From an uncultured Desulfobulbaceae bacterium (GTDB lineage: Bacteria > Desulfobacterota > Desulfobulbia > Desulfobulbales > Desulfocapsaceae), in NCBI GenBank assembly GCA_965366875.1, contig CBDUGK010000007.1, positions 758 through 64,757 on the forward strand: DNA of 64,000 nt, read 5' to 3'. The notes beneath the pieces are model-generated. The model saw only the letters and a program-made list of their open reading frames with translations. It was not told the origin of the DNA and did no database searches. A program made the position numbers and the translations under genes. This document shows positions 1-7,606 of the stretch, in pieces (the first letter of the stretch is position 1; each line of letters opens with the position of its first letter).

Positions 1-1124
1 CCCAGCCGCTGCTGAAAGGATTCGGCATCGCCTATAACCGCTCACCTATCGATCTCGCCGGTATCGATCATTCAATTGCTCAGGAGGAGCTGCGACGCAA
101 TGTGGAGAGCCACCTGCTCGAGGTGTCCCGCGCCTACTGGGGCCTCTACCTGGAACGCTCACTGCTGCTCCAGAAAGAGCAGCTCGCCAGGAAAAGCCTG
201 GAAATCTACAGACAGATGCAGCAGCGTACCGGCATGGATGTCCCGCCCAGCCTGCTGGCACGCTCCAAATCCCTGGTCAGCGCCCACGAGCTTGCCGCCA
301 TGCAGGCGGAATATGCGATGCTCAATGCCCAGTCCCGCATTCGAGCCCTGGTAAATGATCCCGAACTCATCTCCGCAGCCAGCCTGGAAATGATCACCAG
401 CCAGCTGCCGCAAAACACCCTGTTTGAAATTGATTTTGACCAGGCACTGCAGACCACCCTGAGCAATAGACCCGAAGTGGCTCAGGCGATAAAGCATATC
501 CAGTCTGCCTACCTCCGGCTTGAACGGTCTAAAAGCGAACTGCTGCCCGATCTCGATCTTTTTTTTCAGACCTATGTAAAGGGGCTCGAGGGTGATTACG
601 AATACAGCGACGCCTACTCCAACCAGTTTAATGATGGAGAGCCCAGCTATGTTACCGGTCTGCGCTTTGAATTTCCGCTTGGGAACAATGGTGCCGAAGC
701 CCGCAACCTCAGGAAAAAGCTGGAGATTCGGCAACTTCTGCACCAGCTTGACACCACCGTTGAAAACGTTCTGCTGGAAGCCCAGGTTTCCTATCGGGAA
801 CTTGAAAAGAACTACCGTTCCATGGTGCAGAGTTACCAGATCATGCTCTCTGATGATGAAGAGGTGAAAGCCCTTCTCTCCCGGGTTGATTATCTCCTGG
901 CCAACAGCGAGCCGTATGGTGATGTGTTATATCGGCTGATGGATGCCAGTGAGCGGTTGACCGACTCGGAAGAGCTGTTTGCCAAAAGCGAACTGACCTA
1001 TAATTACTCCCTCTATAACCTCCACCGGGCCATGGGAATCCTGGTCAGCACAAACAACATCACCTTCACCGAGGAAAAACCCGAAGATGGGGATACCTTG
1101 CCGGCAATCTATGTTCGTCAGTAA
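1..1124 (+). CDS. TolC-family outer-membrane efflux protein, 5' end outside window
   Basis: The frame of the listed 102..1124 ORF stays open back to nt 3, so the start lies upstream. Helical-repeat sequence of OMF type (VSRAYWGLYLERSLL, YNYSLYNLHRAMG). First gene of a HlyD operon. Confidence 0.8.
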   Translation, partial: QPLLKGFGIAYNRSPIDLAGIDHSIAQEELRRNVESHLLEVSRAYWGLYLERSLLLQKEQLARKSLEIYRQMQQRTGMDVPPSLLARSKSLVSAHELAAMQAEYAMLNAQSRIRALVNDPELISAASLEMITSQLPQNTLFEIDFDQALQTTLSNRPEVAQAIKHIQSAYLRLERSKSELLPDLDLFFQTYVKGLEGDYEYSDAYSNQFNDGEPSYVTGLRFEFPLGNNGAEARNLRKKLEIRQLLHQLDTTVENVLLEAQVSYRELEKNYRSMVQSYQIMLSDDEEVKALLSRVDYLLANSEPYGDVLYRLMDASERLTDSEELFAKSELTYNYSLYNLHRAMGILVSTNNITFTEEKPEDGDTLPAIYVRQ

Positions 1125-1993: not shown

Positions 1994-2296
1994 ATGACAG
2001 ACGACACAAAAAAACAACAGCAGATCAAGGTTCGCTATAATGAAACATCGGCCCTCTATGCTTCCCAGTTTATTGTCAACACCAGCGGTGAAGACCTGAT
2101 TATAAATTTTTCCTCAGGCCCGATCACCGATCCAGCCGGCGGGGAATCCATCCTGCCTGTCCATACCCGGATGGCAATGACCATCAATGGTGCCAGACGC
2201 CTGCATAGCGTGCTGGAAAACATTCTGGGCAAACAGGGGGCTGATGCAGCAAAGATTCCTGCCGCTGCGCAGGCAAATCTCTCGGACGTCAACTAA
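1994..2296 (+). CDS. small DUF3467-like protein
   Basis: 100 aa, no signal peptide. YASQFIVNTSGEDLIINF and HTRMAMTINGARRLHSVLENIL fit my memory of the DUF3467 pattern. GGAGA lies 8 nt upstream of the ATG. Confidence 0.55.
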   Translation: MTDDTKKQQQIKVRYNETSALYASQFIVNTSGEDLIINFSSGPITDPAGGESILPVHTRMAMTINGARRLHSVLENILGKQGADAAKIPAAAQANLSDVN

Positions 2297-4183: not shown

Positions 4184-6343
4184 ATGGCCCACCCCGAATC
4201 ATCCCTGCCGAGACTCCGCTCCGAGCTCCGCTTCTCCCCGGTCAAGGAAGGCAACCGGATAGAGTACATCCTGGAAGACCCCGTTCGTAATACCTTTTAC
4301 CGGCTTGGCCTCGAGGAATATCTGTTTATCAGCAGGCTGAACCAGGCCTCCGGACTTGAGCAATTACTGGAGAGTGTCGCCCAGACCGGCAATACGCAAC
4401 TGAGCGCCGAGCAAGCCCAGGCTATCCTGAACTGGCTGGCAGCCAGGCAGCTCCTGCAGGTAGATGATGCCGCCCCCCTTGTTCAGGCACTGGAACAGGA
4501 AGAAAAACAGAAAAATGCACGGCACTTCAGCCGACTCAATATCATTACCATCAAGGTGCCACTGTTCAACCCTGACCCTCTGCTGAACTACCTGAGCCCC
4601 AAGTTTAACTGGCTGACCGGCAGGTGGTTTGCGGCACTCTGGCTGATCCTTGCCGCCTCGGCACTTACTGTGCTTTTTTCAAAATGGCAGGAGTTCAGCA
4701 GTCAGGCGATTGGTTTTTTTTCAGCCGGTAATGTGCTTTTTATCTGGCTCATCTGGTTTTTCCTCAAACTTTTTCATGAATTATTCCATGCCCTGGTCTG
4801 TCGCCGCTACGGCGGCAGAGTCTATGAGGCCGGCATCCTGTTTATTCTCTTTATTCCGCTGACCTATGTCAATGCCACATCATCATGGAATTTTCCTTCA
4901 AAATGGCAGCGCATTCATGTCGCCGTGGCCGGCATGTTCCTCGAACTCGGTATTGGCTGGGCGGCACTCCTGGTCTGGGCTGGACAGCCGAATACCACGA
5001 CGGGATTCATTGCCCATAACACGGTTATCATCGCTTCGGTCAGCTCCCTGCTCTTCAATGCCAATCCGCTCATGCGTTTTGACGGTTATTACGTCCTTTC
5101 TGACCTGATCGGCATACCTAATCTTTACAGCCGCGGTCTGCAGTTCATCAAGTCCGTCGGCGCACGCTGGTTTCTCGGTATCTCCTCTGCCGCTGTCTGG
5201 CAGAACGGTCCGAAATTATGGTTTATCAAGTTCTATGGTGTCGCCATTTATCTCTGGCGCCTCTTCATTCTTGTTTCCCTTGGCTATATCGCCAGCACCA
5301 TGGCCGGAGGCTTCGGCATCCTGGCAACGATCGGCGCTGCCGTTGTCTGGGTCGGCACACCGCTCTACCAGTTTTTCAAGCGTTTGCCGTTTTACCGGCA
5401 GCAGAATCCTCATGTCCTGCGCCACCTGCTGCTGCATCTGGTTATAACCCTGCTGGTCATCTTCGCCGGCGTTCGTTATACTAGTTGGGAGCAGAGAATT
5501 CAGGCTCCCGCAGTAGTTGAATACCAGCACCAGTATAGCGTACGGCCTGAAACCCGAGGCTTTGTCAGCATTGTCCACGTCACCACCGGCCAGCAGGTGC
5601 GGCAGGGAGACCTCCTGCTGACCCTGGAAAACGATGAACTGTCATACACAGCTCGTGATCTGCAGCTGCAGACTCGGCAACTGAAACTGGAAAGCCGCCT
5701 GGCCCAGTCCAACGGGGAAATAACCAAACTGCAGATCCTGCAGGAGCAGCAGCAGAATTTGTCAGGAAAACTGCAGGACCTTGAGGCGGACCTGAGAGCG
5801 TTCGAAGTCCATGCTCAGGGTGACGGTGTCGTCGTCGGCACCGGCCTGGATGCAATTGAGGGAACCTATCTTTTCAGGGGCCAGGAAGTTTTCTGGATCG
5901 TCAGCCCGGAACAGAAACAAATCTCGGCAAGCGCCTCCCAGGATGACATTGAACAGTTCCGGGCGCTGCTGAACCGGCCCCTGAAAATAGATATGCGGTC
6001 CGCAGGGCTCGGCACTTTTACCGGCACACTCAGGCAGGTTTCACCCAACGCAACCACCGAATTGATCCATCCGGCGCTTGGGGCTGTCTACGGAGGGCCG
6101 CTCGATGTCCGGCAGCAGTCTCTCGGTACTGTCGGGGAGGACATGGAGCAGCGCTATCGTTTTGAGTTGTTTACGCCGCGGTTCAGACTTGATGTTGAGC
6201 TGCCCGCAGAGCTGACTGAAAAAGTCAAAGACGGTCAACCGGCAACGCTGTACACGCGTGGTTCCAGAATTTCACTCGGCCAGATAATTGTCAATAAGGG
6301 GCGCGACTGGCTGCAGAACAAAAATTCCCTGCTGGACAGGTAG
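4184..6343 (+). CDS. M50 (site-2-protease-like) metalloprotease fused to a HlyD-type adaptor
   Basis: Multi-TM core with HELFH (nt 4775-4789) and NPLMRFDG (nt 5063-5086). C-terminal about 270 aa is HlyD-like (VSIVHVTTGQQVRQGDLLLTLEND, long coiled coil, barrel). 6-nt gap to the upstream gene. Confidence 0.8.
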   Translation: MAHPESSLPRLRSELRFSPVKEGNRIEYILEDPVRNTFYRLGLEEYLFISRLNQASGLEQLLESVAQTGNTQLSAEQAQAILNWLAARQLLQVDDAAPLVQALEQEEKQKNARHFSRLNIITIKVPLFNPDPLLNYLSPKFNWLTGRWFAALWLILAASALTVLFSKWQEFSSQAIGFFSAGNVLFIWLIWFFLKLFHELFHALVCRRYGGRVYEAGILFILFIPLTYVNATSSWNFPSKWQRIHVAVAGMFLELGIGWAALLVWAGQPNTTTGFIAHNTVIIASVSSLLFNANPLMRFDGYYVLSDLIGIPNLYSRGLQFIKSVGARWFLGISSAAVWQNGPKLWFIKFYGVAIYLWRLFILVSLGYIASTMAGGFGILATIGAAVVWVGTPLYQFFKRLPFYRQQNPHVLRHLLLHLVITLLVIFAGVRYTSWEQRIQAPAVVEYQHQYSVRPETRGFVSIVHVTTGQQVRQGDLLLTLENDELSYTARDLQLQTRQLKLESRLAQSNGEITKLQILQEQQQNLSGKLQDLEADLRAFEVHAQGDGVVVGTGLDAIEGTYLFRGQEVFWIVSPEQKQISASASQDDIEQFRALLNRPLKIDMRSAGLGTFTGTLRQVSPNATTELIHPALGAVYGGPLDVRQQSLGTVGEDMEQRYRFELFTPRFRLDVELPAELTEKVKDGQPATLYTRGSRISLGQIIVNKGRDWLQNKNSLLDR

Positions 6344-6409
6344 TCCAGCAGGGGAGTACGCTCTTCAATTACGGAAAAATTCTCGAAATCCCCACAGAGA
6401 AGACCTCTT

Positions 6410-7462
6410 TTACAAAGCGGCGATCACACGGTCAGTAAACGAAGTCGTTGTTTCCTTGCCGCCGAGATCAGGAGTCAAAAGCCCCTCTGAAGTAACTGTC
6501 TCAACGGCCTCCATCAGTGCATCACCGGCCGTTTTCTCACCAAGGAAATCAAGCATCATCTGAACCGACCAGAGTGTTGCAATCGGGTTCGCTATGCCTT
6601 TTCCGGCGATATCCGGGGCGGAACCATGAACCGGCTCAAACATTGAAGGATATTGTTTCGACACATTGATGTTGGCTGACGGCGCAATACCAATGCCGCC
6701 GGCGATCGCCGGGCCGAGATCGGAAAGGATATCGCCGAAGAGATTACTGCCGACAACAACGTCGAACCAGTCGGGATGCTGGACAAAATTGGCGGTAAGA
6801 ATGTCTATGTGAAACTGGTCACAGGTTAAATCGGGGTAAGCTGCGGTAACTGCTTTGAAGCGCTCGTCCCAGAACGGCATGGTGAAGCGGATGCCGTTTG
6901 ATTTGGTTGCCGAGGTAATATGCCTGGCCGGCCTTTTCTGGGCGAGATCGCAGGCGAACGTGAGTATCCGGTCGACTCCCGTCCTGGTAAAAATCGTTTC
7001 CTGAACCGCAAACTCCCGTTCGCTTCCCTCGAAGAGTCGCCCGCCAATTTCTGAATACTCGCCTTCTGTATTCTCCCTGACCACGATGAAATCTATATCG
7101 CTGCTGTCCCTGTTGGCGAGCGGTGAGGAAACCCCTTTCAGCAGCCTCACCGGCCTGAGATTAACATATTGATCGAACCGGCGTCTAATCGGCAGCAGCA
7201 GTTCCCAGAGCGAAACATGATCGGGGACAGCAGGGTCTCCGACAGCACCGAGCAGGATCGCATCAAAGGGTCTGATCTGCTCGAGCCCATCTTCCGGCAT
7301 CATTTTACCATGCTCACGATAGTATTCGCATGAATAAGGAAACTCTTTGTAGGAAACGGTGAAATTGAATTTTGAGGCCAGGACATCCAGAACCCTGACG
7401 CCCTCAGGTATTACTTCTCTGCCAATTCCATCACCCGGTATTAATGCTATTTTATAGCTCAT
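6410..7462 (-). CDS. tartrate dehydrogenase/decarboxylase-like enzyme (isocitrate/isopropylmalate dehydrogenase family)
   Basis: IALIPGDGIGREV N-terminus, GSNLFGDILSD, about 350 aa. Start moved to ATG 7462 (GGAG 6 nt upstream). Confidence 0.75.
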   Translation of the reverse strand: MSYKIALIPGDGIGREVIPEGVRVLDVLASKFNFTVSYKEFPYSCEYYREHGKMMPEDGLEQIRPFDAILLGAVGDPAVPDHVSLWELLLPIRRRFDQYVNLRPVRLLKGVSSPLANRDSSDIDFIVVRENTEGEYSEIGGRLFEGSEREFAVQETIFTRTGVDRILTFACDLAQKRPARHITSATKSNGIRFTMPFWDERFKAVTAAYPDLTCDQFHIDILTANFVQHPDWFDVVVGSNLFGDILSDLGPAIAGGIGIAPSANINVSKQYPSMFEPVHGSAPDIAGKGIANPIATLWSVQMMLDFLGEKTAGDALMEAVETVTSEGLLTPDLGGKETTTSFTDRVIAAL

Positions 7463-7606
7463 GGTCTGCTCCACTTCGTCTTAATTGATTTGTCTGCCGG
7501 TAGTTTCTTGCCATTCTCGGTTCAAACGTTCAAACACACGTGTCTTGTTACTACAATGAAATGATTGAAATATCAATACAACCCTGGAAAGGCAGCGGTG
7601 TCATCA

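Follow-up and report, generated by a model that had tools for sequence, protein, structure and literature searches.

We analysed a window of 64,000 nucleotides from an uncultured Desulfobulbaceae bacterium (GenBank assembly GCA_965366875.1, contig CBDUGK010000007.1, positions 758 to 64,757 of the forward strand). Close to its 5' end, the plus strand carries a cassette of genes for a TolC-like outer-membrane factor, a 295-aa adaptor, a DUF3467 protein, a 621-aa adaptor and, last in order, a 719-residue protein. The open reading frame (ORF) of this last gene begins with ATG, 6 nt past the stop of the gene upstream, and runs for 719 codons with zero internal stops. Its product, here called the fusion protein, joins three modules on one polypeptide: an N-terminal RRE (recognition element of peptides that are made on ribosomes and modified after translation, RiPPs), a polytopic core of the site-2 protease (S2P, M50) type and a C-terminal periplasmic adaptor.

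The fusion of protease and adaptor is widespread. A search in a protein space of 5.8 billion returned 1,238 matches; among the best 120 of these, nearly all are 690-735 aa long, collinear and 39-88% identical to the query, the few shorter ones being truncated entries. In an exhaustive HMMER search with aa 1-440, sequences grouped at 50% identity gave 10,548 matching clusters with E<=1e-3, of which 3,010 reached E<=1e-30. The best 150 of these clusters are almost all 700-780 aa long and are therefore fused as well. In a scan of one genome per species, at least 586 species encode a relative. Among the groups with relatives are Desulfocapsaceae, Desulfobulbaceae, Pirellulaceae, Planctomycetaceae, Brocadiia, Ca. 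Uabimicrobium, Verrucomicrobiota, Thiotrichales, Beggiatoa and Saprospiraceae. Their source annotations are generic: "putative peptide zinc metalloprotease protein" (JGI), "efflux RND transporter periplasmic adaptor subunit" or "biotin/lipoyl-binding protein". The possibility that an assembly or gene-calling error joined separate protease and adaptor genes, through a missed stop or a frameshift, has virtually no chance of being right. Several phyla are represented among the hundreds of independent assemblies that contain the same collinear single ORF, and the junction itself is conserved (transmembrane helix 411-432, W435 and P442). On these sequence comparisons, such an origin of the fusion can be regarded as excluded for practical purposes, and the single polypeptide described in the earlier note is borne out.

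That note had placed the motifs HELFH (nt 4775-4789) and NPLMRFDG (nt 5063-5086) in a polytopic region resembling intramembrane zinc proteases. Both positions are exact, corresponding to aa 198-202 and aa 294-301, and hydropathy and AlphaFold helices agree that the region is polytopic (aa 147-432). HELFH (H198-E199-L-F-H202) lies within transmembrane helix 181-208, and the second motif extends to N292-A-N-P-L-M-R-F-D300-G301, which conforms to the S2P pattern NxxPxxxxDG with its Asp zinc ligand. Across 92 full-length homologues, the most distant of which are 38% identical, H198, E199, H202, N292, N294, P295, D300 and G301 never vary, and HExxH and NxNPLMRFDG are likewise invariant in 30 cross-phylum sequences. 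Because these residues are invariant, the protease is expected, from its sequence, to be active. A hydrophobic beta-hairpin (aa 215-230) is modelled by AlphaFold inside the polytopic helical region 131-432.

The assignment to M50 is also supported by profiles and fold comparison. Pfam PF02163 scores 24.7 bits on the full-length protein, under its cut-off of 27.2, and 27.6 bits on aa 1-440 alone; it matches 30 of 30 N-terminal regions from five phyla at E<=1e-3 (best 1.4e-10). The top Foldseek match of aa 1-440 in the PDB is the Methanocaldococcus jannaschii S2P (mjS2P) 3b4r (E 7.8e-3, probability 1.00, 191 columns), with a target template-modelling (TM) score of only 0.41. A family-wide sequence-profile search against the PDB returned adaptor structures only and no S2P; the relationships to S2P and RRE surfaced only once aa 1-440 were modelled separately. 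The fusion protein shares with RseP, SpoIVFB and mjS2P the placement of HExxH and NxxPxxxxDG in transmembrane helices. The overall likeness is weak, however (~14% identity in addition to the low TM score), and the RRE stands in place of a PDZ or CBS domain on the substrate-recognition side.

AlphaFold2 models were computed from a 92-sequence alignment, with a predicted local distance difference test (pLDDT) of 82.7 for the full-length protein and of 83.8 for aa 1-440 (predicted TM score 0.68). In these models aa 16-87 show the three-stranded sheet followed by three helices that is characteristic of an RRE (strands 16-22, 25-32 and 37-41; helices 43-51, 58-69 and 75-87; pLDDT 80-89), and a long helix, aa 97-117, lies C-terminal to it. 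Foldseek matched aa 1-440 to the TbiB1-leader complexes 5v1u/5v1v and the lasso B1 protein 6jx3 (probability 1.00, target TM score 0.69-0.73, root-mean-square deviation 2.8-3.4 A), with TglHI, CteB and SuiB ranking next. D32, E45, Y46 and W84 are invariant in the 92 homologues, and E31 is nearly so. No PqqD-type match was found in the fusion protein by Pfam or NCBIfam at E<=0.01; RREs are frequently too divergent for PqqD-type sequence profiles. The earlier note had guessed at a small peptide-binding module here. The leader-complex matches (best TM score 0.73, deviation 2.8 A) give this guess an identity, and the stretch that had been quoted (aa 11-48) is the beta-sheet half of an RRE fold of ~85 residues.

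The C-terminal part is an adaptor of the HlyD/MacA type. Pfam HlyD_D23 scores 46.1 bits (cut-off 30) over aa 436-623 and HlyD_3 32.8 bits (cut-off 22.2). The PDB profile search matched MacA 4dk1 at 1.4e-11, and also LipC, EmrA and HlyD; Foldseek with the full-length model returned adaptors only (MacA, AcrA, MexA, EmrA and ZneB, 1e-13 to 1e-10). Transmembrane helix 411-432 precedes the adaptor, as in the layout of membrane-fusion proteins, and aa 434-719 comprise lipoyl-like half-motifs, an alpha-hairpin, a beta-barrel and a C-terminal helix. The scores for the curated subfamilies RND_mfp (TIGR01730; 62.3 bits vs 94.9; RND, resistance-nodulation-division) and type_I_hlyD (TIGR01843; 29.8 vs 208.65) are below cut-off, and by these profiles the fusion protein is a member of neither. 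The earlier claim of a C-terminal adaptor therefore stands, over ~285 aa, while the "long" coiled coil attributed to it does not: in the AlphaFold model the hairpin consists of two helices of ~26 residues each (484-509 and 513-538), which is the size seen in AcrA and MexA and not that in HlyD. The conserved R505 and Q517 flank the loop between both helices.

Seven transmembrane helices are predicted (147-166, 181-208, 240-267, 272-292, 343-373, 376-407 and 411-432). By the positive-inside rule, hydropathy and AlphaFold, the basic loops 207-212, 239-243 and 398-414 are placed inside, and the hairpin 215-230 would re-enter from the cytoplasmic side. The predicted topology is N-in/C-out; the RRE would then be cytoplasmic, the adaptor periplasmic, and both zinc motifs would lie close to the cytoplasmic leaflet.

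Table 1. Features of the cassette and of the adjoining part of the window; coordinates count from the first nucleotide of the window.
Feature	Coordinates	Strand	Basis or remark
TolC-like outer-membrane factor, 3' part	3..1124	+	Pfam OEP 1.3e-13; frame open from nt 3
Short membrane-fusion protein, 295 aa	1087..1974	+	HlyD_D23 2.5e-17; TIGR01730 119 bits (cut-off 94.9); one N-terminal transmembrane helix, aa 27-45
DUF3467 protein, 100 aa, soluble	1994..2296	+	PF11950 26.1 bits (cut-off 25)
Partner adaptor, 621 aa	2312..4177	+	HlyD_D23 8e-19, HlyD_3 1.2e-16, both aa 394-588
RRE - S2P/M50 - adaptor fusion, 719 aa	4184..6343	+	Motifs, profiles, AlphaFold, Foldseek
RRE/PqqD-like winged-helix domain, aa ~10-95	4211..4468	+	AlphaFold and Foldseek; predicted cytoplasmic
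Polytopic S2P/M50 core, aa 147-432	4622..5479	+	PF02163, NF041824, Foldseek 3b4r, hydropathy
HELFH (HExxH; zinc-binding and catalytic), H198/E199/H202	4775..4789	+	Invariant in homologues
NANPLMRFDG, second S2P motif, N292-G301	5057..5086	+	D300 is the presumed third zinc ligand
Periplasmic adaptor, aa 434-719	5483..6340	+	Pfam, PDB profile, AlphaFold, Foldseek
Alpha-hairpin of the fusion protein's adaptor, aa 484-538	5633..5797	+	AlphaFold
Hairpin across the stop codon of the fusion gene	6327..6353		11-bp GC-rich stem, 8 G-C pairs
Tartrate dehydrogenase gene	6410..7474	-	TIGR02089, 558 bits
FAD/NAD(P) oxidoreductase, 614 aa	8285..10129	-	

The frame of the outer-membrane factor is open from base 3 of the window, and the start of its gene must therefore lie off the window. 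At the other end of the cassette, the hairpin across the stop codon lies between convergent genes and is probably an end-of-operon mark, serving as a bidirectional terminator. With this hairpin at its stop, and with the tartrate dehydrogenase gene converging on it and ending at 6410, the fusion gene is the last gene of the same-strand operon. The tartrate dehydrogenase and the oxidoreductase that follow belong to ordinary metabolism, and their neighbourhood with the cassette is not kept in relatives.

The same cassette is found in relatives at 43-92% identity, and across phyla. A partner of the 621-aa type is encoded directly upstream of the fusion gene in ~76 of 84 loci, the short adaptor and the outer-membrane factor are present in most, and orthologues of the latter (446-895 aa) occupy the same cassette position. 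As is typical of type I secretion, an adaptor and a TolC-like outer-membrane factor are encoded beside the candidate substrate, a giant protein described below. Pfam and NCBIfam scans of the window's cassette found no gene for an ATP-binding cassette (ABC), RND or major facilitator superfamily transporter, and of 84 related loci just 2 contain an ABC-ATPase-like ORF within 10 kb, which in one of them (L049) is a true ABC exporter. The ABC transporter that serves as inner-membrane component in type I secretion is absent from the window's operon, and the system is therefore not a type I secretion system (T1SS) by definition. The earlier note had suggested that the protease itself could be the inner-membrane partner. 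The lack of ABC and RND genes fits this proposal but does not prove it.

The partner adaptor has a cytoplasmic domain of ~350 aa, one transmembrane helix (aa ~353-382) and a HlyD-type periplasmic part. In a Pirellulaceae orthologue (L016, 7960-9927) the N-terminal domain matches GAF at 5.6e-7; that of the window's partner has no Pfam match even at E<=1. The GAF match suggests control of the machine by a small molecule. DUF3467 keeps its cassette position in Desulfobulbales and in loci of Methylacidiphilales, Uabimicrobium, Chthoniobacteraceae and Saprospiraceae (at least five phyla). In some loci it occurs together with the SecA-like gene discussed below (L047, L053, L107/L108). No PDB match of DUF3467 is better than E 0.3. 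A SecB-like chaperone was considered for this protein and rejected: hhalign gave a probability of 0.3% against E. coli SecB, and no PDB match pointed that way.

The cassettes are accompanied by genes for giant proteins. Wherever the flank of a Desulfobulbales-type relative is long enough, the gene of the outer-membrane factor is preceded by a giant gene that ends ~30-50 nt before it; these giants reach 4,257 aa and contain SdrD_B, CLIPPER and CarboxypepD_reg repeats. Giants also flank the cassettes of the Planctomycetes-Verrucomicrobia-Chlamydiae (PVC) type. The giants next to cassettes are 2,500-4,300 aa long. Those of their N-termini that fall within the loci share the motif L-E-x-R-[VI]-L-F-D-A-x-P ("LEPR-XLL"), located 10-70 residues into the protein, as in LIEQLEERALFDAVP, WEQMEDRVLFDAV, FEALEPRVLFDAAP and THLEERLLFSAVP. 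When the conserved C-terminal domain of the giants (alignment A5) was used as a metagenome profile, it retrieved 66 loci, in many of which the cassette follows. Complete Desulfobulbales-type N-termini with the motif are MRSLFTKRRLRLLEMELLENRIFLDANP in L099, where the giant is followed by the outer-membrane factor gene and the contig ends, and MKKSTSHQLILESLEERVFFDANP in L104, where a full cassette follows. The start of L002 had no exact match in a metagenome scan, and searching for homologues of the C-terminus of the Desulfobulbales giant yielded fragments only.

The motif is enriched in the giants. Of 92 N-complete ORFs with 800 aa or more, 16 have it within their first 120 aa, compared with 3 of 8,017 ORFs of 60-299 aa, and a variant of it occurs in 27 N-termini adjoining cassettes. 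Conservation reaches beyond the search pattern: 23 of 26 have a proline at +10, and positions -5 and -3 hold conserved leucines. NCBIfam NF012209 ("LEPR-XLL") scores 24.3 bits on the giant of L064 (cut-off 17) and 15.6 on that of L035. No hydrophobic (Sec) signal peptide was seen in the giant N-termini examined. We infer that the LE-x-R-[VI]-L-F-D-A-x-P motif of the neighbouring giants is the candidate ligand of the RRE.

The other end of the giants also shows regularities. Desulfobulbales, Saprospiraceae and Chthoniobacter giants have in common a C-terminal domain of ~150 aa (AEPGT...DTAGNW...PHHMEI.Q...FN.RTYF) that matches no family; the members of alignment A5 are L004 (4642-5091), L001, L002, L006-L008, L057 and L063. 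The planctomycete giants of L018 (13401-20135, plus strand) and L035 (5186-12847, plus strand) end differently, with GYVIW[TS][LI]RGGL..., P.W, DPLPIL and an acidic tail, and their hydrophobic C-terminal segment looks, from its sequence, like a membrane anchor or sorting signal. Several planctomycete genomes hold two or more paralogous cassettes: L013 (10001-12109, plus strand; ~16550-14464, minus strand), L041 and L045 on one Mariniblastus contig, L040 and L078, and L030 and L056. In one case the cassettes stand back to back. The occurrence of several cassettes in one genome suggests one machine per giant substrate.

The combination of RRE and S2P is known from daptide biosynthesis, where MpaP/DapP, an RRE fused to a site-2 protease, is the proposed remover of the RiPP leader, and the conserved motif of that leader, ELDPMEAP, extends up to the cleavage site, position -1 (PMC10036551). 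In these enzymes, too, an N-terminal RRE precedes a HExxH intramembrane metalloprotease, and they are homologous to aa 35-388 of the fusion protein. They are ~380 aa long, come from Gram-positive bacteria, have no adaptor domain and are encoded in RiPP clusters, whereas the fusion protein has two additional transmembrane helices and a periplasmic adaptor of 285 aa and is encoded among duct components and giant repeat proteins. The daptide motif resembles L-E-P-R-x-L-F-D-A-x-P in its order of residues (L, acidic, P ... acidic, A, P). Given the homology of the RRE-protease modules, the substrate of the fusion protein may plausibly bear a related, daptide-like leader.

The same homology raises the alternative that the fusion protein matures and exports a RiPP or bacteriocin, like daptide MpaP or YydH/LiaK, and that the giants are mere bystanders. 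The closest curated families are indeed RiPP leader peptidases: the best NCBIfam match is NF041824, the daptide intramembrane metalloprotease (E 1.9e-42, over aa 35-388), followed by NF058609 (YydH/LiaK epipeptide protease; KEGG yydH) at 2e-5. The JGI name quoted above points in this direction, and RRE domains are characteristic of RiPP pathways (PMC10036551). These matches score far under their cut-offs, however (145.7 bits vs 300 and 24.4 vs 225), so that the fusion protein is an equivalog of neither family, and there is no daptide gene cluster. No aminotransferase, methyltransferase or decarboxylase was found among its neighbours, nor does the cassette have a conserved modifying enzyme. When the cassette ORFs of at least 50 aa were clustered, DUF3467 was the sole conserved small ORF family; it lacks the leader motif, and no other precursor-like family was found among them. 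The leader-like motif is found on the giants instead. We consider RiPP maturation to be quite improbable as the function of the cassette.

In other lineages, candidate motors are encoded within the cassette. A truncated SecA paralogue of ~640 aa forms part of it in 29 of 150 loci, mainly of Planctomycetota and also verrucomicrobial (for example L047, 13888-15828, and L016, 4794-6701, with 27 further loci). It matches SecA_DEAD at 1e-95 as well as the preprotein cross-linking and P-loop domains, and it aligns to SecA models only up to ~600-640 of their ~790-810 positions, the C-terminal part being missing. In a Pirellulaceae locus (L049, 5862-7751) the slot of the SecA-like gene is taken by an ABC exporter of the T1SS type. 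The window has no SecA-like gene.

We propose that the cassette encodes a duct that exports the giant, whose leader the RRE would bind and the S2P core would remove; of the readings considered here, this is the one we hold to be rather likely. A giant repeat protein without signal peptide, encoded beside the cassette, would carry the L-E-x-R-[VI]-L-F-D-A-x-P leader at its N-terminus. The RRE would bind this leader in the cytoplasm, and the S2P core would remove it on the membrane's inner face, cutting, by analogy, soon after D-A-x-P. The adaptor of the fusion protein, the partner adaptor and the short adaptor would dock to the outer-membrane factor and together form the exit duct. PVC-type cassettes that include the truncated SecA paralogue would use it as their motor. 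A more far-reaching version is put forward tentatively, as a possibility that we would not yet bet on: the fusion protein may be the hallmark of an undescribed Gram-negative secretion system that has no ABC transporter, spans the envelope with a TolC-like channel and three adaptors, one of them bearing the RRE-guided S2P, is powered by the truncated SecA paralogue in PVC bacteria and exports LEPR-XLL giants independently of Sec by way of a cleavable N-terminal leader.

The same components could instead serve retention and release. In that case the giant would be exported by a different route, for example a classical T1SS encoded elsewhere, with its C-terminus first; the RRE would hold the leader, keeping the giant threaded in the duct and tethered to the cell until the S2P cut released it, in analogy to LapG/LapD and LapA, and the GAF-domain partner might control that cut. 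In at least one orthologue the partner has a cytoplasmic GAF-type sensor domain, and the window's cassette lacks an ATPase; both are consistent with this scenario, as is a published LEPR-XLL giant with C-terminal RTX/serralysin domains typical of T1SS substrates. No RTX match was found in the neighbouring giants examined, however; 82 of 84 cassettes have no ABC exporter nearby; and the PVC cassettes hold a SecA-like motor of their own, or once an ABC exporter, which points to active export by the cassette. Retention and release therefore appears to us unlikely. Motors inside the cassette in other lineages and the absence of ABC pumps favour export through the cassette-encoded duct.

Several observations weigh against this export model. 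The window's operon encodes no ATPase, and the energy source is the main gap of the model. The giant of the window's own genome is postulated from relatives at 85-92% identity, and its gene would lie off the 5' end; no ORF with the LE-x-R motif exists in any frame of the window. In the closest relative, a Desulfocapsaceae metagenome-assembled genome at 92% identity (L005, 1-5095), the giant gene is split over three frames, which is either a long-read assembly error or a pseudogene. S2P enzymes usually cut helices embedded in or close to the membrane, whereas the proposed leader is soluble. Judging by the RTX-bearing giant, a classical T1SS may serve some of the LEPR-XLL proteins. The clustering of small ORFs covered those of at least 50 aa, so a smaller peptide substrate would have escaped it, which would suit RiPP maturation. 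Finally, in Thiotrichales and Beggiatoa relatives (L017, L021, L023 and L031) the gene is an orphan, with neither partner adaptor nor outer-membrane factor, and its neighbours are unrelated (CheA/MCP-type signalling, a glycosyltransferase, TamB).

The proximity of these orphans to chemotaxis-type signalling genes, together with the fold and motifs of the S2P core, would agree with a role in regulated intramembrane proteolysis or quality control, in which the S2P core, tethered to an efflux adaptor, cuts an anti-sigma factor or a stalled membrane protein. Such a role is highly improbable. The cassette contains no sigma/anti-sigma pair, PDZ domain or site-1 protease, and the RRE and the strict coupling with two more adaptors and an outer-membrane factor would be left without a role.

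The export model shares elements with established secretion systems. In the export of colicin V and in peptidase-containing ABC transporters (PCATs), a C39 cysteine peptidase is fused to the ABC pump, which works with a CvaA-type adaptor and TolC on small-peptide cargo. The fusion protein likewise has a leader peptidase built into a subunit of a tripartite exporter, where the leader would be cut as the cargo enters the duct. It differs in that the adaptor is the subunit that bears the peptidase, an S2P with an RRE, in that the cassette has no ABC pump, and in that the candidate cargo is 2,500-4,300 aa long. The accessory Sec system of Gram-positive bacteria has a dedicated SecA paralogue (SecA2) beside a giant adhesin with an unusual N-terminal signal. 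The likeness holds for the PVC-type cassettes, where a SecA paralogue is encoded beside a giant with an unusual N-terminus; in these cassettes, however, the SecA-like protein is truncated and SecY2 is absent, and the window's cassette has no SecA-like gene at all. The T1SSs of giant adhesins (HlyBD-TolC, and LapBCE for LapA with LapG/LapD; PMC8277102) also have their outer-membrane factor and HlyD-type adaptors encoded next to a giant repeat adhesin, on whose N-terminus proteolytic control acts. In contrast to them, the cassette has no ABC transporter, three adaptor-type proteins, an N-terminal instead of a C-terminal signal and an intramembrane protease in the machine. In the literature searched we found no description of the M50-HlyD fusion or of its cassette; reviews of adaptors from 2015 and June 2026 make no mention of a protease-fused adaptor, and LEPR-XLL receives passing mentions only. 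We regard the fusion protein as a new combination of known modules that probably marks an undescribed export route for LEPR-XLL giants.

Tripartite exporters are taught as an assembly of pump, adaptor and channel. Here the adaptor bears modules of its own that would recognise and cleave a leader, and the cassette is usually without a pump gene. The family is large, comprising ~3,000 clusters when grouped at 50% identity and occurring in 586 species or more; sediment sulfate reducers, planctomycetes and verrucomicrobia commonly carry it. The architecture alone already makes its automatic annotation misleading. If the export model is true, it would explain how adhesins of several thousand residues without signal peptides come to be displayed on the cell surface, and the N-terminal LEPR-XLL motif would gain its first function. 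RRE domains, hitherto a hallmark of small-peptide natural products, would then also serve in protein secretion.

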